From positions 352,001 to 416,000 of the forward strand of contig OY771506.1 of assembly GCA_963674705.1 (NCBI GenBank): DNA of 64,000 nucleotides. Direction: 5' to 3'. The DNA is from Phycisphaeraceae bacterium (GTDB lineage Bacteria > Planctomycetota > Phycisphaerae > Phycisphaerales > Phycisphaeraceae). The position numbers were made by a program, and so were the translations under genes. This document shows, piece by piece, positions 9,218 to 53,743 of the stretch (the first letter of the stretch is position 1; each line of letters starts with the position of its first letter). The notes under the pieces were generated by a model. The model saw only the letters and a program-made list of their open reading frames with translations. It ran no database searches and was not told the origin of the DNA.

Positions 9218-9655
9218 ATGGATTATCAAGAATTCTATAAAGTCTTATTTACACCTCTGGTCAAACAATATGGTGAATTAGACAATGAAACATTGACGTC
9301 CATAATCGGCTTTTCCGCAGGCGGCCCCGTCTCATTATCTACAAATAAGAAACAAAATCTATTTGTGACCTGCGAACTGGCTACGTATCCCGAACAACAA
9401 CTAAGCTCTGAAGGCATCAGGTATGAGTTGTATTCTGTCGGCCAATTCCCTGCTGAATGGTGCAGTGTTGTCTTTACAGCTATAGGGAACTTATCTTTAA
9501 ATAAGCAGCTCGGTGATCGGCATACCATCGATATATCGGATCTAATGAGCGGGTCTGATACGATCGATGCCGTTCAGTTGCGATTATTCAGCCAGACAAG
9601 CATCAATAACCAGCCTTATGGCCTTTATGAAGTATCCCCACATAAGCCAGTCTGA
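9218..9655 (+). CDS. Suppressor-of-fused (SUFU)-like protein
   Basis: AT-rich ORF; IIGFSAGGP, FVTCELA, RYEL and LGDRHTIDI resemble bacterial SUFU-domain proteins. Confidence 0.55.
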   Translation: MDYQEFYKVLFTPLVKQYGELDNETLTSIIGFSAGGPVSLSTNKKQNLFVTCELATYPEQQLSSEGIRYELYSVGQFPAEWCSVVFTAIGNLSLNKQLGDRHTIDISDLMSGSDTIDAVQLRLFSQTSINNQPYGLYEVSPHKPV

Positions 9656-10466: not shown

Positions 10467-10543
10467 TTCACCGCAGAGATCGCGGAGGACGCAGAGTAGG
10501 ATAAGAAGTGTGGAACAATGATAAACGCTGATGAACGCTGATA
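10467..10543 (+). repeat. Left arm of 9-mer inverted-repeat bracket
   Basis: TTCACCGCAGAGATCGCGGAGGACGCAGAG plus AACGCTGATGAACGCTGAT. The outer part is complementary to 11269-11298 and 13335-13364. Confidence 0.8.
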
Positions 10544-10594
10544 GTCACGATTTGATCCCGTAGGAGCGGGCCTATCCGGGCGCAAACACTGAAT

Positions 10595-11101
10595 ATGCCT
10601 TCAACACCTGTCCCCGAAGTCAGAGATCATGATCTTCCGGTTGTCGAATCGACATTCTGGAGAACCTCCTATTGGCTTGTGTTGATTCACTCAACATGCA
10701 TTTGGATTAGTTGTTTCGTATGCGTATTTCCGTTGCTAGGTGCGAAAACAGATCCTGATGACAGCACAACACTTCTTGTTCTTTTCGCGGTTATATTTTT
10801 TCTTTCCATCACAAGTATCCTGGCCAGCGTCGGGTTTTATAAATGTAGACGAAGCGATCGAAGCAAAGGGTACTTGATAGCCTACATTATCCTCCAGTCA
10901 CTTTATTTTGTCAGTAGCTTGACTTGCGTGTCATATGTTTTCTACGTGATCTTGGCTTTGGCTGCTGGTTATCAAAACCAATCAACAGTTGGGTTAGCAG
11001 TCGTGATTATCTTGGCTCTTGTCGGCTCCTGTCTGCCTTTGTGGCTCGTGATAGGCAGAGGCGTATGGATACTTTTTCATCGGCCCCAGGCAACTGGTTG
11101 A
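10595..11101 (+). CDS. Orphan 4-TM membrane protein
   Basis: AT-rich 168-aa ORF with four hydrophobic segments, enclosed by inverted repeats. Confidence 0.7.
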   Translation: MPSTPVPEVRDHDLPVVESTFWRTSYWLVLIHSTCIWISCFVCVFPLLGAKTDPDDSTTLLVLFAVIFFLSITSILASVGFYKCRRSDRSKGYLIAYIILQSLYFVSSLTCVSYVFYVILALAAGYQNQSTVGLAVVIILALVGSCLPLWLVIGRGVWILFHRPQATG

Positions 11102-11220
11102 TGCCAATGGTAGATTCCTGAATTGCGTCACTTGAGGCTATGACTTGCGAGGCACATACGGCCCAACCTTCCAGGAATGCGGAGCCTCAGTACGTAGGCC
11201 CAGACCCACATCCGCAAAAT

Positions 11221-11309
11221 CAAAATATGCGTAATCCCCGTAATCTGCGAATACTTCTATTTGCCTTTCTCAGCGCCCTCCGTGTCCTCTGCGGTGAACC
11301 CGCTTATCC
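11221..11309 (-). repeat. Right-arm repeat, copy 1 (89 bp)
   Basis: 79/89 identical by manual alignment to 13287-13375. Confidence 0.9.
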
Positions 11310-11400
11310 CCCTATCACCAACCAACATCTCATTTTGATTGTAAAATTACTGATATGTCGAGCATGAGACAGTTGCCATAGGTATGAATAGAGGGGGCAC

Positions 11401-12324
11401 ATGTTTTATCCCATCCGGTCGTTCTATCCTGAACTGAAGCCACTACCCTGGAAACTGAGGTGGGCGGTTATCAAGCGCGTCTGCGAAAACCCGATGTCGC
11501 GAAGCCGTGCGCCTAAATTGCTTGTGGGTATTGGCACGGTTGTGGGGCTGGTGAGTATGGTCACCGCCATCTATCTCACGTTGGGCACATTTTCAATGAA
11601 CAACGATGTTGTGGTTGTGATGGCCGCCGTGTTGGCATTGCTGCCGTTTTGTATAGCCGCTTATGTCGTGAAAGTCATCGACGACCGTAAGTCGTTTCTC
11701 ATCTGGCTGGAAAATCACACATACAACCAACGGTCACACTTCTGCCTGAACTGCTGGCAACCTTTGCATGATCTCGATCGCGAAGATTGCCCACACTGTT
11801 CACAGCAGCAATTCACGTTCAACACCGACCGCCAGGGCACCGCTTTACCCTTAGAGGAAGCAACAGAAGAAACACCCGAACTGCAACTACCCGCCATCGA
11901 GTTGCCGGACAAGACTGACCGAGAAGCCATCAGCTACTTCCTGCAAGGCAAAAAACCACCGGAAGCAGAATTCTGGTACGCCATGACCGAACCGTTGGCG
12001 TATGCCGTCATCTTCGGCCTGCCGATCTCCATCGGCGTCGTCATCTACAGCCCCACATACCGGTGGTATGCCATGGCTGCAGCGATAGCCATCATCTCTC
12101 TCGCAGGGATAGCGGGGTACCGTATTCAACGAACCACCCGAGCACATTCAAAACGGGCTATCAAAAAGTACTGCCCCGACGGCGTCGCCCCGTGGTGCAT
12201 CTACTGCGACTACGACCTGCGCGGCCGCATCGAATCTTCCTGCCCGGAATGCGGCAAACCCATCTTCGTCTACGACTTCAAATGGCGGCCGTGGAAGTTC
12301 AGACGATCCCGGCCTGAAAAATAA
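11401..12324 (+). CDS. Membrane protein with two (2TM + CxxC..CxxC zinc ribbon) modules
   Basis: CLNC...CPHC and CIYCDYDLRG...CPECG, each following a pair of TM helices; GAGGGG SD. Confidence 0.8.
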   Translation: MFYPIRSFYPELKPLPWKLRWAVIKRVCENPMSRSRAPKLLVGIGTVVGLVSMVTAIYLTLGTFSMNNDVVVVMAAVLALLPFCIAAYVVKVIDDRKSFLIWLENHTYNQRSHFCLNCWQPLHDLDREDCPHCSQQQFTFNTDRQGTALPLEEATEETPELQLPAIELPDKTDREAISYFLQGKKPPEAEFWYAMTEPLAYAVIFGLPISIGVVIYSPTYRWYAMAAAIAIISLAGIAGYRIQRTTRAHSKRAIKKYCPDGVAPWCIYCDYDLRGRIESSCPECGKPIFVYDFKWRPWKFRRSRPEK

Positions 12325-12335
12325 GGGGGAATGCC

Positions 12336-13250
12336 ATCTACATCATCCGCTCCCACTATCCCGAACTGCAGCATCTTCCGCATGAACTACGGCACGATCT
12401 ACTCAAGCACATCTGTGCCAATCCCGTGCATCAGCCCGTCCTACCGTTGGTCGTTTTTTCCGCCGGATTGATCCCGGTCTTCGTCACACCCTTCGCCGCA
12501 ATCTGGTACTACGGCATCTATCTGGTGTCCCTCACAAATATCCTGCTTATCACCGGCAGCGTCGCGCTATTCTGGGTTGCAGGCATCGTGATCCCCAAAC
12601 TTATCAGCGACCGTAAAAAGTTCTGTAGATGGTTAGACCGACGCACATACCGTGGGTATCCACATCATTGTTTAAGTTGCAGACACCTGTTGAAAGACCC
12701 GATCGCCACATGCTGTGAATCTTGCGGAGCGCAAACGCATCGACTGGACACGGAACGGCAAGGCGTCGCTCCGCCGGCCGAGGACATGGCTCTGCAATCA
12801 CTGATCGATCCGTCGATGACCACGTATCCGAAGGACCGACAACGTAAAGACCTCACCAAGAATCTCCACTTTGCTCAACGGCAACATCTGCTGCTGGAGG
12901 GCTTCGTAGTATCTCTCACGCTGGTCTTAGAGGGATGGTTGCTATGGGCTATCCTCGTATGTGTAATTGGGTACTGGATCTGGCAAAGTTGGGGCACATG
13001 GTGGCTGATGACACTGAAAATCGCAGCGATCGTGGCGTTATATATTCTGGTTGTAGCCTGGATCGCAATGCAACCGCGGCTATTGCTTAAGGCCGTTAAA
13101 AAGTATGGGCCATATGGAGCGTTACCCTGGTGTCTATCCTGTGATACTGATCTGCACGGCAATCTGACTCGCGACAGAGACGGGCGTCTCAAGAAACGAT
13201 GTGCCAAGTGTGGACGGCCAGTGTTTGAATATGAAGTGGATGACAAATAA
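12336..13250 (+). CDS. Tandem paralogue of 11401-12324 (zinc-ribbon membrane protein), start anomalous
   Basis: The frame upstream of GTG 12426 reads IYIIRSHYPELQHLP...ICANP, aligning with FYPIRSFYPELKPLP...VCENP. Contains CLSC..CESC and CLSCDTDLHG..CAKCG. Confidence 0.7.
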   Translation: MYIIRSHYPELQHLPHELRHDLLKHICANPVHQPVLPLVVFSAGLIPVFVTPFAAIWYYGIYLVSLTNILLITGSVALFWVAGIVIPKLISDRKKFCRWLDRRTYRGYPHHCLSCRHLLKDPIATCCESCGAQTHRLDTERQGVAPPAEDMALQSLIDPSMTTYPKDRQRKDLTKNLHFAQRQHLLLEGFVVSLTLVLEGWLLWAILVCVIGYWIWQSWGTWWLMTLKIAAIVALYILVVAWIAMQPRLLLKAVKKYGPYGALPWCLSCDTDLHGNLTRDRDGRLKKRCAKCGRPVFEYEVDDK

Positions 13251-14873: not shown

Positions 14874-15914
14874 GAGCATCTTCCACGCCACTGTAGCGCC
14901 CTTGTACACAAGTGATTATGCTGTGCCTTCAAGCAAGGAGGCTTTGATGAAGGCATATTCAATGGATCTGCGGAAGCGGGTGTTGGCGGCGTGTGATGCC
15001 GGGCACGGCACGCGTGAGGTGGCCAAGCGGTTCTCGGTCAGCGCCTCGTGGGTGCGTCGGCTCAAGCAACGGCGTCGTGAAGGCGAGGGGATCGCGCCGC
15101 GGCCTCAGGGCGGCGACTACGTCAGCCGGTTCGCCGGCAAAGACCTGCAGCGTGTACATGCGATGCTCAAGCAGAAGCCGGACACGACGCTGGATGCGTT
15201 GCGTGTGCGTTGTGAGCGTGAGCTGGGCATCCGTTGCGGGCTGGGCACGATGTGGCGGACGGTGCGTTGGAAGCTGGGGTGGACGTTTAAAAAAAGTCAT
15301 TACGGCCCAGCGAGCAGGACCGCGCGGATGTGAAGCAGCAGCGTGTGAACTTCCGCATCGCCACACGGTTCATCGAGCCTAAGCAGCTTGTTTTCCTGGA
15401 TGAATCGGGCGCGAGGACGAACATGACCCGCCTGCGGGGCTGGGCCGGACGCGGTTGCCGGCTGGACGCCGCGGCGCCGCACAGCCACTGGCGTACGACG
15501 ACGATGCTCAGCGCGATCGGTTGTGAGGGTGTGATCCAACGGGCGACGCTGGCCTTCGACGGCGCGACGGATGCGGCGCTGTTCCGAGGCTACGTCGAGC
15601 GTTGCCTGGCCCCGGCACTAAAGCAAGGCCAGATCGTCGTGATGGATAACCTGGCGTCGCATAAGGTGCGCGGGGTGCGTGAAGCGATCGAAGCGGCGGG
15701 CTGTGACCTGTGGTACTTACCGCCGTACTCACCGGACTTCAACCCGATCGAGAAGATGTGGAGCAAGGTCAAAGCCCTGCTGCGTGCCGCCGCCGCGCGG
15801 ACCAGCGACAAACTGATTGAGGCGATCGGTCGGGCGTTGCGTGCGGTATCCCTGGACGAGTGCCGCAACTACTTCCGCAGCTGCGGGTATGCTACATGAG
15901 ATTGGAAGACGCTC
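14874..15914 (+). mobile_element. IS630-family insertion sequence, 1041 bp, TA target duplication
   Basis: Left end TA|GAGCATCTTCCAcgccacTGTAGC; right end GCTACAtgagatTGGAAGACGCTC|TA; encloses a DDE transposase. Confidence 0.93.
14947..15899 (+). CDS. IS630 transposase (two ORFs joined by a -1 frameshift)
   Basis: HTH ORF MKAYSMDLRKRV; catalytic ORF with FLDESG, VMDNL and LPPYSPDFNPIE; slippery TTTAAAAAAAG at 15286-15296. Confidence 0.92.
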
Positions 15915-21535: not shown

Positions 21536-22321
21536 ATGACCCAAAACAATCACTCACAACCCGCCCCACAAAAACTCGGCGACTTCACCGAACAAGCCGA
21601 CGCGTATCAGGCTTCACGCCCGAACTACCCCGTCGCCCTGATCGAAGAGCTTATCCACCAACTCAACCTCCAACCCAGCGCCAACGTCGCTGACATCGGC
21701 GCGGGCACCGGCATCTTCACCGCTCAACTCGCAGCGCATGGCTTCAACATGACCGCCGTCGAACCCAACCCCGTCATGAGTAACAAAGCGGTAACCCATA
21801 CGAACGTCCGTTGGGTCAAAGGCACGTTTGAAGAAACTTACCTGCCTGATGCTTCGCAGGATTGGATCACCGCCGCACAGGCATTCCACTGGGCCAAACC
21901 CGACCAGGCCCTGCCCGAACTGCACCGCATCCTCAAACCCAACAGCGCTTTCACCGCGCTGTGGAACAACCGCCTTAACAATGAAGAACCGATACTCACG
22001 CGCACATGGGAACTGATACGTACCAACGTCCCCGAATTCGACGATACCTACCGCGACAACGGCAACTGGGAAAACGTACTCACCTCAAACGGCCTCTTTC
22101 ACGATGTAACCCGCAACGAACACCGCCACATCATCAACATGCCCCGCGAGCGCTACCTCGCACTCTGGCACAGCCACAACCACCTCAACGTCTCCGCAGG
22201 CCCACAGCGCTTCGCCAAACTGATCCAACTCATCGAACAGGACCTGGACAAACACAATGTCGATGTTGTGCCGATGCCCTATCTATGCCAAGCCTGGACC
22301 GCCAAACGCCGCGATACATAA
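21536..22321 (+). CDS. Class I SAM-dependent methyltransferase
   Basis: Y..SRPNYP, VADIGAGTG, AVEPN and AAQAFHW motifs. Confidence 0.92.
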   Translation: MTQNNHSQPAPQKLGDFTEQADAYQASRPNYPVALIEELIHQLNLQPSANVADIGAGTGIFTAQLAAHGFNMTAVEPNPVMSNKAVTHTNVRWVKGTFEETYLPDASQDWITAAQAFHWAKPDQALPELHRILKPNSAFTALWNNRLNNEEPILTRTWELIRTNVPEFDDTYRDNGNWENVLTSNGLFHDVTRNEHRHIINMPRERYLALWHSHNHLNVSAGPQRFAKLIQLIEQDLDKHNVDVVPMPYLCQAWTAKRRDT

Positions 22322-22368
22322 AACACACTTAGCCCCGGGCTTGCCCGGGGTAACTCAACAAATGCAGA

Positions 22369-22424
22369 TGAACCGCGAAGGCGCAAAGAGCGCGAAGAAG
22401 ATTAGCCACCGATAAACACGGATA
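22369..22424 (+). repeat. Left inverted repeat of a filled bracket
   Basis: TGAACCGCGAAGGCGCAAAGAGCGCGAAGAAGATTAGCCACCGATAAACACGGATA, complementary to 23060-23125 with about 5 mismatches. Confidence 0.9.
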
Positions 22425-22443
22425 CGAGCCAAGCGAAGAGGTG

Positions 22444-22956
22444 CTATTCCAACAAACGCGACGACACGACATACAATGCCGCCAGGCAAACCGGTGTCAG
22501 GCTGTCGAAGAAAAATGCAACCAGTAGATTGATATTATCGTCCACTGGAATAACCCGAACGATCGCAGTTGAAACCAGACAAACCGGCACGATGGCGATG
22601 CACGCAAGCTTCACCCATTCGATGCCTTTTAGATTCGCTTCTCGCCAAAGCCCTATCAAGAGAAACAAGAGCGTCAGCAGGTAGAGGATGTAGAAAGGCC
22701 AATAGGTCCAGACATAAAGCCAATCGAGACGATCGGTCGTTTGGCCCCTGAATAAATCAGGAAACGTCAGAACTACTTGAATACCTGATGCAACAGCAGC
22801 AAATGAATACACCTTCTGACGATCACGTATCGCCCAGCAAGCCCCGGCAATGAGGCCATATCCAATACAGCTTGGCAGACAAATACCTAGCCCGTTGACT
22901 TCCAGGTTTAACGCAACACACAACAAGCCAATCGCAATCAACCAATAATGTGTCAT
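22444..22956 (-). CDS. Orphan multi-TM membrane protein (cargo between inverted repeats)
   Basis: Lower-GC 170-aa hydrophobic ORF with AGGGGG SD. Confidence 0.75.
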   Translation of the reverse strand: MTHYWLIAIGLLCVALNLEVNGLGICLPSCIGYGLIAGACWAIRDRQKVYSFAAVASGIQVVLTFPDLFRGQTTDRLDWLYVWTYWPFYILYLLTLLFLLIGLWREANLKGIEWVKLACIAIVPVCLVSTAIVRVIPVDDNINLLVAFFFDSLTPVCLAALYVVSSRLLE

Positions 22957-23059
22957 CAGTAAATTCCCCCTTTAAAACATGGATCGAAAACGAACAATCC
23001 TCTACTACTAACTGAATCTAAGAACCAAACGCTGCTCATCAGCCTCAACTCTTTTTTCT

Positions 23060-23125
23060 TATCCGTGTTCATCCGTGTTCATCTGTGGCTAATCTTCTCC
23101 GCGCTCTTCGCCCCTTCGCGGTTCA
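23060..23125 (-). repeat. Right inverted repeat of a filled bracket
   Basis: TATCCGTGTTCATCCGTGTTCATCTGTGGCTAATCTTCTCCGCGCTCTTCGCCCCTTCGCGGTTCA. Confidence 0.9.
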
Positions 23126-23129
23126 CCCC

Positions 23130-24038
23130 CTATCCAAAATACTTCCCCCACAACAAATCCAACCGCTCAACCGCCACCCGATCGATCTTCGAGTTATCCG
23201 ACCAGATTCCCAGCGCCAGCGCGCTGTGCGCCGGACTCGGTTCAGCCTGCAACGCGCTCGTATCGCGCAGCGCCTGCTTCATCAGCGCGATGTTCGCCTT
23301 CGTCGCTTTTTGCAGGTTCCCGATGATCTCTTCCAGCAGATTCTGCGCAGGTACATTCGGATCGTGTGGCCGCCAACAGTCGTAATCCGTCGGCATGGCG
23401 ATCATCGCATACGCGATCTCCGCTTCACGCGCGAGCTTCGCCTCGGGCATCGCCGTCATGCCGATCAGGTCGCCGCCCCACTGCCGGTGCATGTTGGATT
23501 CAGCCTTGGTCGAAAAGGCAGGCCCTTCCATCACCACATACGTCCCCGTTTCGTGCACCTTGATCCCGTCGAGCCCCTTGGCCGCATCCAAGAGCCACTT
23601 GCGCATCACCGGGCAGAACGGCTCGGAAAATTCCACGTGTACCGCGGCACATTCGTAAAAGGTGTTTGCCCGCTTGTGCGTCTTATCTATCAGTTGATCG
23701 ACGATGACAAGATCACCCGGTGCGACCTCTTCGCGCAATGAGCCGGTTGCGCCGCTTGCGAGAATATGTGTAACACCCAGGCTCTTGAGTGCGTAGATAT
23801 TAGCGCGGTACGGCACAGCCGAAGGGTTGAGCGTGTGCCCCGGGCCGTGACGTTGAAGGATCGCGACCTGTGTGCCACCCCCGGAAGTTCCCCAATCCGC
23901 GAGCGTGATCGGTGAACTGGGTTTACCGAAAGGGGTATCGACTTCGATCGTCTCGCCCTTTTCCGCCCCGAGCGCGTCGCCCAGGCCGCTGCCGCCGATG
24001 ATGCCGATTTTTACTTGTTCATGGGTTGTCTGATTCAT
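23130..24038 (-). CDS. mtnP: S-methyl-5'-thioadenosine phosphorylase
   Basis: IGIIGGSG, TPFG.PS, RHG..H, EGPAFST.AES, GMT..PEAKLAREAE and TDYDCW motifs. Confidence 0.95.
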   Translation of the reverse strand: MNQTTHEQVKIGIIGGSGLGDALGAEKGETIEVDTPFGKPSSPITLADWGTSGGGTQVAILQRHGPGHTLNPSAVPYRANIYALKSLGVTHILASGATGSLREEVAPGDLVIVDQLIDKTHKRANTFYECAAVHVEFSEPFCPVMRKWLLDAAKGLDGIKVHETGTYVVMEGPAFSTKAESNMHRQWGGDLIGMTAMPEAKLAREAEIAYAMIAMPTDYDCWRPHDPNVPAQNLLEEIIGNLQKATKANIALMKQALRDTSALQAEPSPAHSALALGIWSDNSKIDRVAVERLDLLWGKYFG

Positions 24039-24231
24039 CACAGGATCATAACCCATTTACAAAAGTGCAGACCCGATGCACAAAACCACCCGCGAGCACG
24101 GTGTGATCAATGAATACACACCCGAATCAAAATTTCCTATTGGGGGCATGACATAAATCTGTCCGTCATGCGACTACACCCATGCATCAGCCTGAAAGTG
24201 CCTCTGGCACGACACGCTAGGGAGGTGTCAC

Positions 24232-35741: not shown

Positions 35742-36269
35742 ATGCCGACACCGGGTAAGCGCTGGTATCACATCATTCTAAATACTCATGGTTCCTGATT
35801 GCCCGGGGACCCACGTGGATTTCGTAGTCGTAAACATAGAAAACATAGCAGTGGTGATTACAAACATCCACCACCTAATGGCGAACATGCCGAACTGCAC
35901 GAATATGCGAAGCGTGTAAGCGGTGACGCGATTTGGATCAAACCGTCGCTCAGGTCGATTGTGGGAGAAACGATACTTGGAAAAATCGAGAAGCAGGAAC
36001 ATCGTGTTTTAGCGATCTCTGTTGGTTCCAATCACGCACATATCCTCGTCGAATTACCCGATAACCGATCGGTCGTCGGGGCTATCTGTGGGACATGGAA
36101 GCAGGCGGCTTCGCACAAAGTGCGTGAAGAATTGCCCGGCAATATTTGGGCGGAGGGTGGTGATCCGATACCCATCCGTGATGAAGCACATCACCGACGG
36201 GTGTATGAATATATCCTGCGGCACCTGGATGAGCATGCATGGATATGGTCGTTTAAAGATGAAAAGTGA
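35742..36269 (+). pseudogene. REP-associated tyrosine transposase (RAYT, Y1 HUH) with in-frame TGA at codon 19
   Basis: MPTPGKRWYHIILNTHGS*LPGDPRG...NHAHILV (HUH)...IWAEG...YEYI; flanked by REPs on both sides. Confidence 0.8.
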
Positions 36270-40933: not shown

Positions 40934-41077
40934 AGCCGCGAAGCTTAAAGACTTTTTATTAGCCGCAAATGAACGCAAATGGACGCGGATGTTGTTGAAG
41001 GTCGAACCCTATCAATCGACAGATTAATTTGCGTGGATTAGCGTTTATTGTCGGCTTGCTTTGCTGCTTCGCGGTTG
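40934..41077. repeat. Empty nested 9-mer inverted-repeat element
   Basis: CCGCGAAGC..AGCCGCAAATGAACGCAAATGGACGCGGAT ... ATTTGCGTGGATTAGCGTTTATTGTCGGCT..GCTTCGCGG. Confidence 0.8.
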
Positions 41078-52477: not shown

Positions 52478-52653
52478 TTCACCGCGAAGGCGCGAAGAGC
52501 GCGAAGAAGAAACAGAATTAGCCGCGAATGAACGCTAATCAACGCAAATAAGAAAGAAGAGGTCGATGATTCAGCCTCTTCTTTTTTTATTATTCGCGTG
52601 TATTTGCGTTTATTCGCGGCTTATTTTCGCGCTCTTCGCGTCTTCGCGGTTCA
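52478..52653. repeat. Empty nested 9-mer inverted-repeat element between convergent ald and dapA
   Basis: ACCGCGAAGGCGCGAAGAGCGCGAAG..TAGCCGCGAATGAACGC ... GCGTTTATTCGCGGCT..TTCGCGCTCTTCGCGTCTTCGCGGT; same arms as 22369/23125. Confidence 0.9.
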
Positions 52654-53634: not shown

Positions 53635-53743
53635 TAACAGGGATGAACACGGATGAACACGGATTAGAATTCAGGGGAATAACATACTCGACGACCTACA
53701 CATACTTCTTCTATCTGTGTTTATCCGTGTCCATCCCTGTTAC
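53635..53743. repeat. Empty 9-mer (GAACACGGAT) inverted-repeat element
   Basis: GTAACAGGGATGAACACGGATGAACACGGAT ... ATCTGTGTTTATCCGTGTCCATCCCTGTTAC; same family as 205-376. Confidence 0.9.

Follow-up and report, generated by a model that had tools for sequence, protein, structure and literature searches.

The inverted arms that enclose a low-GC membrane gene at positions 22369-23125 of the window studied here probably represent the termini of a small selfish element which encodes a GxxExxY (PF13366) protein. Judging from sequence comparisons, most copies of this element would now be gene-less remnants, and their interior would be replaced now and then, at this locus by a roaming membrane gene. 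The window is the whole stretch of 64,000 nucleotides that was analysed (G000:C1:352001-416000). It lies within a one-contig genome of 5.54 Mb, which we refer to as G000. Coordinates are those of the window unless they are given as G000 positions.

The two focal arms (22369-22423 and 23071-23125) are 55 nt long each and 91% complementary, and a third word on the right lengthens that arm to 23061. Each arm has two layers: an outer layer of 9-bp words of the CGCGAAG type ("A") and an inner layer of 10-bp words of the CACGGAT type ("B"). On the plus strand, the left arm carries its three A words at 22372-22397 and its two B words at 22405-22423. The right arm (23061-23125, minus strand) has three A words outside three B words and begins 4-5 bases past the stop codon of the mtnP-like gene. 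This flanking gene (PNP/UDP phosphorylase, 23130-24056, minus strand) is the conserved anchor of the slot and is convergent with a class I methyltransferase gene on the other side (21536-22321, plus strand), which comes after mtnP in 5 of 11 genus genomes. A short REP-like palindrome at 22329-22353 lies outside the left arm and is separate from it; it is missing at the equivalent spot in the genus genome G004. No sigma-70-like promoter was found in or near the arms (22250-23200), and the three terminator-like matches in the same interval all fall within the bracket, none of them at the arms.

The passenger gene (22444-22956, minus strand, as mtnP) encodes a predicted four-helix membrane protein of 170 aa with four hydrophobic segments, and its GC content is 0.48, compared to 0.57 and 0.59 in the neighbouring genes. 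A Pfam search returned no family for it, and an NCBIfam search returned weak matches alone, far below the cut-off. The ESM Atlas placed it with unnamed clusters at 0.92, but with a recognition score under the threshold, so that this is a lead only. A word-index protein search returned only the passenger itself. Homologs with 31-41% identity were found in 5 of 143 genomes of the same family and in none of 10 genus genomes; in one case (L220) the homolog directly adjoins a gene which, going by its motifs, we take to be RAYT-like. The initial annotation had described a low-GC orphan membrane gene between inverted arms and convergent genes. The bracket is as described, while the five homologs mean that the gene is not an orphan in the strict sense.

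Across the genome, the three main word patterns have 85, 47 and 32 matches, compared to 0 in an order-3 Markov simulation. Arm profiles gave 326 matches above 20 bits, which merge to about 280 arms in G000; on one strand of the reversed genome, each family had 0-1 matches. Among neighbouring arms less than 300 bp apart, 98 of 105 point inward, and in 98 of 99 tight pairs both arms share the word family. The arms are thus paired and not distributed independently of each other, as the capture proposal had supposed. Well inside called genes we found 6 of 341 arm matches, and the median arm start lies 15-17 bases past the host stop codon. Exactly three words are present in 131 of the 144 B arms of empty pairs. 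Where layers are nested, A lies outside B or its sister word B2 (27 cases) and never the other way round. The suggestion that the arms are not plain terminators also held: a T-rich tail was seen at 28 of 220 bracket ends, which does not amount to the pattern of rho-independent terminators, and the bracket at 40934 stands behind a separate hairpin with a T-run. In arm orientation, the base triplet that borders the first word on its outer side is mostly TTA (T 174, T 135 and A 166 of 220). This edge reads TAA on the other strand and may be a target or end signature.

A loose A pattern was found at 123 loci in 4 of 64 parts of the species collection; an exact two-layer A+B pattern had no match in the collection. 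By their names, the records with A arrays belong to Planctomycetota, cyanobacteria, Chloroflexota, Acidobacteriota, Nitrospirota, deltaproteobacterial families, Alphaproteobacteria and Gemmatimonadales. For the 72 A loci whose inner sequence extends over 1200 bp or more, a pattern search found a partner within 300 bp in 24, at 300-1200 bp in three and none in 45. The three wider pairs enclose one GxxExxY gene and two other genes.

Several further brackets lie in the window. Two of them, reported earlier as empty copies of the same two-layer arms, share the outer A layer with the focal bracket, but their inner word is the sister type CGCAAAT (B2). The first (52478-52653) lies between convergent genes for alanine dehydrogenase and dapA. 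Six of the seven genus genomes with sequence at this junction have the outer A arms, all six empty, with an inner layer of three different word types among them; these counts leave aside G005 (contig end) and G007 (partial dapA match). The second (40934-41077) is the one behind rplT and rplT's own hairpin; its left A arm is decayed, and it was found in 6 of 10 genus genomes. Upstream of dapA, an empty B-type bracket at 53635-53743 has words of the CAGGGAT type, which is the arm type of the GxxExxY gene at G000 2220387. The B-type bracket at 205-376, whose arms are both reduced to two words, is indeed related; it is not empty, since a 7-mer hairpin of the four-helix-bundle type, itself without a gene, is nested inside. 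The hairpin matches the arms around a four-helix-bundle gene at another genomic site (23 nt, 96%, both arms), and the G004 counterpart of the bracket has three-word arms around a different inner hairpin.

The bracket at 10467-11298, built from a third word type (C) around ORF 10595-11101, had been counted as a second filled orphan example. It encloses a shortened member of a resident membrane-protein family, with relatives at the same junction in G010 (E 2.5e-13), G007, G002 and others. A variable low-GC gene is present at this creatininase junction in 9 of 9 genomes (G005 left aside, as its contig ends there), and both arms are present in G000 only. As the gene family occurs at the junction in arm-less relatives, we dropped this locus as an example of capture. 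The creatininase-rmuC junction as a whole (10595-13250) holds membrane proteins in tandem that diverge fast, and most of them have Cys motifs at the C terminus that look zinc-ribbon-like; at least one such protein is present in every genus genome examined, and they are very divergent from one another.

The gene that belongs to the arms is likely that of the GxxExxY nuclease. All three GxxExxY genes of G000, one of them with an internal TAG, lie within such arms. GxxExxY proteins are present in 11 of 11 genus genomes (37 matches); 30 of these loci, three of them G000's own, were fetched and read by eye. Inward word arrays stand on both sides in 29 of the 30, and the remaining locus is cut by a contig end with the other arm present. 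One further copy in G004 (L094) has no recognisable arms. Because word arrays enclose all the GxxExxY genes of G000 and those fetched from the genus, the nuclease is a better candidate for the cognate than the RAYT of the window, in keeping with its earlier listing as a possible mobiliser. The disrupted RAYT had been named as the only candidate cognate in the window. This decayed RAYT-like frame (35799-36269, plus strand; 27 bits against a cut-off of 80) lies outside the bracket system and is flanked by an unrelated palindrome family (D3), and it was ruled out as mobiliser on that ground. Among genes in such arms, no transposase was seen save an IS nested within another repeat (G000 1802027).

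The two intact G000 copies match PF13366 with E about 1e-40. E89 and K91 are invariant among 27 sequences and D79 is present in at least 90%, an acidic-lysine catalytic pattern, and the structure model (pLDDT 89.8) matches Cas4 SSO0001, lambda exonuclease and Hjc. The arm ends match those of GxxExxY units, and the protein is nuclease-like. In a FastTree phylogeny of 33 GxxExxY proteins, many tips of which come from one insertion site and are not independent, the proteins whose arms have 10-bp words group in a single clade (support 0.91), which includes one arm-less copy and is separate from the proteins with 9-bp AAG or GAG words. As an exception, the A-armed L128 groups with C-armed proteins. 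Arm word type broadly follows protein clade. A comparable arrangement was seen for the four-helix-bundle genes (TIGR02436), of which 5 of 6 in G000 lie within clear inverted arrays of 7- or 8-mers; their units swap with GxxExxY units at the same junctions.

The history of the focal slot can be read from G004, the closest relative, which is about 94% identical to G000 in DNA sequence and colinear over the compared regions. Its methyltransferase-mtnP junction has the same A and B arms, and a short hairpin, as a third layer, stands where G000 has the gene; homology to G000 stops exactly after CACGGAT at 22423 and, on the other side, at 23059. In G000 the left arm lacks the third B word that the empty allele has. 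The filled/empty polymorphism that the initial annotation had suggested looking for at this junction is therefore present, with G000 filled and G004 empty between the same arms. Since the focal arms and the arms of the empty allele are orthologs, they predate the divergence of the interiors. The same 635-base skip is spanned by a contig of a different study (run X6), which may be of the G004 lineage. In run X1, the likely source run, a look for the empty allele gave only short-sided joints, which may stem from other brackets; contigs, moreover, lose rare variants.

Other genus genomes have further contents behind mtnP. G002 has a secreted or lipoprotein-like gene between A arms; G001 has a 51% homolog of it next to a decayed arm; and G008 has a broken gene without Pfam family between A arms. 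The G008 gene (L010:2399-2914) is broken by one stop codon, and it has a YIG-like motif that we take to recall GIY-YIG nucleases, although it has no Pfam match. Empty brackets of differing word types are found in G004, G009, G005 and G003, a lone right arm in G006 and G007, and nothing in G010. Equivalent exchanges occur at other junctions. A GxxExxY gene in one genome corresponds to an empty bracket in G000 at 1758768, 5406217 and 2209046, to a four-helix-bundle gene in 7-mer arms at 2218998 and 2916684, and to an unrelated armed gene at 1252419 and 2274324. The breakpoints lie either at the flanking stop or start codons or at word ends. The exchanged stretch is thus either the part enclosed by the arms that both alleles share or the entire spacer from gene to gene, with no duplicated target. 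From these comparisons, empty remnants appear to act as exchangeable slots, of which the focal locus is a clean filled/empty example.

The arms themselves are mostly inherited in place: they are present in both G000 and G004 at 40 of 55 arm-bearing junctions. The G004 sample consists of 44 regions, about 874 kb of 5.76 Mb, and is partly targeted. Within it, length changes of at least 250 bp occurred at 10 of 55 arm-bearing and 17 of 445 arm-less junctions. A restriction to junctions of at least 100 bp reduces the excess (10 of 52 vs 17 of 232, p 0.016), and at spacious loci that had not been chosen for a filled bracket it is 4 of 21 vs 8 of 115 (p 0.09). Many junctions also swap unrelated palindrome families, so that slot behaviour is not specific to these words.

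Individual loci in this comparison show a variety of rearrangements. At 3870825 (L093), G000 has a nearly clean empty site in place of a B bracket that measures about 100 bp in G004; ATCGTA stands on both sides of the bracket, for which duplication and deletion between short repeats are indistinguishable. At G000 2250488-2251396, a 177-aa gene is flanked by two complete empty brackets, against one bracket in G004; this looks as though a piece carrying a bracket had been integrated through a single crossover. At G000 1801744-1803050, a transposase-like gene (297 aa, with a second copy near 5281150) sits in a CCCTCTCCC-type palindrome, which in turn sits within a B bracket, giving three nested elements. 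A B arm in G004 (L088) overlaps the end of a host gene and provides its stop codon; the corresponding site in G000 (1394366) has another palindrome and a different gene end. In the window, an IS630-family element in two reading frames (NCBIfam) at 14874-15914 lies inside a GGGGTGT 7-mer array. It is absent at the G004 spot, and a 96% copy is present elsewhere in G004. An arm-less difference lies 13 kb from the focal site: a low-GC gene of 145 aa at 9218-9655 (GC of the gap 0.42) is replaced by a short palindrome in G004.

These data also bear on the simplest alternative, namely that the brackets are inert and that accessory genes land there because spacious junctions behind stop codons tolerate insertions, without any step directed by the arms. 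Across all 4065 junctions, defined with approximate gene calls from an in-house dicodon model (4342 genes), low-GC genes and arms share a junction more often than expected (OR 2.6-2.8, p below 0.001), which argues against this idea. The enrichment of low-GC genes at armed junctions, which had been predicted, is no longer significant when junction size is allowed for: among junctions of at least 100 bp, low-GC genes are present at 21 of 150 armed and 193 of 1897 other junctions (OR 1.44, p 0.16; OR 1.64, p 0.066 when GxxExxY and four-helix-bundle genes are left out). The arms face the low-GC gene in 16 of 19 cases (p 0.03), which is largely a matter of geometry, as a bracket covers on average 62% of its junction, and the share of such genes that are enclosed, 5 of 7, does not reach significance (p 0.18). 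Such arms are absent from most of the gene-size differences that separate G000 from G004; the low-GC genes of the creatininase junction, mostly without an arm pair, point the same way, and the replacement of a segment with the help of homology on one side is a general route that has been described as homology-assisted illegitimate recombination (PMC2884548). On the other side, three unrelated genes lie tight within A-type arms behind mtnP among 11 genomes, one of them directly behind an arm. Truncated arms also end within about 2 bases of a word end; the informative ones number about 7 and were chosen after the fact, and breakpoints at arm ends are expected anyway where both alleles carry similar arms. 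Mere tolerance of insertions accounts for the cargo statistics nearly as well as the element reading. Taking all observations together, we consider it unlikely, though it is the alternative that survives best.

On present evidence, gene capture would be a minor side effect: when GxxExxY and four-helix-bundle genes are excluded, about 5 of the 270 low-GC genes are enclosed by an arm pair, and one of the five is the resident gene of 10467-11298. Lone arms face DNA of lower GC content (inner 0.537 vs outer 0.577, 49 of 67). We dropped this as a sign of capture, since a lone arm faces its lost partner and the inner windows hold more non-coding DNA.

Two further alternatives fare worse. Arms might be kept for pairing in the transcript, where they would loop out the interior or serve as RNase III or stability signals, as in the intervening sequences (IVS) of rRNA, the termini of which form stems that are cut by RNase III (PMC4990558). 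Bracket units can fold as strong hairpins, the filled focal unit folds with its arms as a single long stem (z -5.3, 20 shuffles), and 108 of 165 arm-bearing junctions are co-directional. However, partner arms are no more alike than shuffled ones (24.7 vs 24.6 and 24.2 vs 24.9 of 29). In 29 B and 21 B2 pairs we found neither covariation nor a G-U bias (41 vs 42). Pairing alone would require neither the near-invariance of the word cores nor their recurrence in distant phyla. We thus regard an RNA function as improbable. The three-word count, the period of 9 or 10 bp, the lack of covariation and the invariant cores suggest instead that the words are DNA sites read by a protein.

The last alternative, that arm-gene-arm moves as one unit in the manner of a mobile insertion cassette or a MITE with a passenger, would agree with the arm-GxxExxY-arm units that come and go as blocks from stop codon to start codon and with the nearly clean empty site at G000 3870825, but it is largely refuted at the focal locus and the least probable of all, since the focal arms are older than their cargo, none of the five distant homologs of the focal cargo (at five unrelated sites, read by eye) and none of three of the G001/G002 cargo has arms, G000 contains no second copy of any of the five enclosed low-GC genes, and flanking direct repeats of at least 5 bases are not in excess (9 of 110 pairs vs 12.9 shuffled, in a test blind to duplications of 2-3 bases). 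The view of the brackets as ends or landing pads of a cargo-acquiring element thus survives in its landing-pad half; arms that travel as moving ends with their cargo do not fit the empty allele or the arm-less homologs.

We therefore return to the GxxExxY element as the preferred reading. The words would be binding sites of a protein, the likely reader being the GxxExxY protein itself. The nuclease, made in trans, may introduce breaks at an arm or within it; recombinational repair that uses the flanking host gene or an arm as its anchor could then spread the element to equivalent junctions. Such cutting and repair would place new layers within older layers and produce empty remnants, and from time to time an unrelated gene would get in. 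Genes of this kind might enter as an occasional by-product of repair, by a replacement aided by one-sided homology as mentioned above, or simply because the interior is neutral space, and they would not turn into passengers of a moving cassette. For the binding, cutting and movement of the nuclease, it is its association with the arms and its predicted fold that suggest these steps. A bolder version, which we put forward tentatively, takes the three-word arms as recognition arrays of GxxExxY and the empty brackets as nuclease-primed slots behind stop codons. Cuts at word ends would let foreign genes or mini-elements in repeatedly, under host transcription, and the result would be a form of gene capture that needs no integrase and operates in many phyla.

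The GxxExxY/PF13366 family is widespread and its function is listed as unknown; with the arms it gains a specific candidate substrate, three-word arrays that track the protein clade. The link would also account for one kind of intergenic repeat that is abundant in Planctomycetota and other phyla. Should the cutting be confirmed, the arms and the protein would be a new small pair of sequence-specific nuclease and repeat, comparable to Ssn/NTS and RAYT/REP, and if the filling of slots depends on the nuclease, they would offer a new route for the uptake of single genes.

Among known systems, mobile insertion cassettes and MITEs have inverted ends, an optional passenger gene and no transposase inside. 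The brackets share these features, but they lack a target-site duplication, their arms are inherited in place, and their passengers are arm-less elsewhere. ORF-bearing IVS of 23S rRNA likewise have a small low-GC ORF between stem-forming terminal inverted repeats (PMC4990558). Unlike these, the brackets lie between protein genes and not in rRNA (Rfam found only two tRNAs in the window), and there is no sign of selection on arm pairing. In REPIN-RAYT systems, extragenic inverted doublets are far over-represented, singlets are likely remnants, insertion into existing copies occurs, and the cognate gene is flanked by its own repeats (PMC3116915). The arms resemble REPINs in being mostly inward extragenic doublets; they differ in having no palindromic REP core and a cognate that is not an HUH tyrosine transposase. 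The report on NTS-ssnA-NTS describes a small GIY-YIG nuclease gene (Ssn) flanked by its own SRM repeats, hundreds of gene-less intergenic repeat copies, often near genes for variable membrane proteins, and an enzyme and repeat that vary together (PMC11893778). The likeness to a single-domain nuclease gene with its own repeats and gene-less intergenic copies is close. In that system, however, the enzyme is a cd10448 GIY-YIG nuclease that cuts single-stranded DNA at specific sites close to the repeat, and the SRM is a self-hairpin of 20-50 nt (PMC11893778), whereas here the protein belongs to the PD-(D/E)XK nucleases with a fold like Cas4 and lambda exonuclease, and the arm is a direct, non-palindromic array of three words of 9 or 10 bp that pairs with its partner arm only and nests. 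The survey entry for PDDEXK_3/PF13366/TIGR04256 gives the function as "Unknown", with multiple transfers, and in that entry neither flanking repeats nor empty derivatives are named (PMC3424549). Searches of open PMC papers and bioRxiv preprints on GxxExxY/PF13366 or on the repeat architecture brought up no description of the arms. The repeat-nuclease element is real and apparently undescribed. It works most like NTS-ssnA-NTS and REPIN-RAYT and resembles ORF-bearing IVS, but it lacks a defining feature of each.
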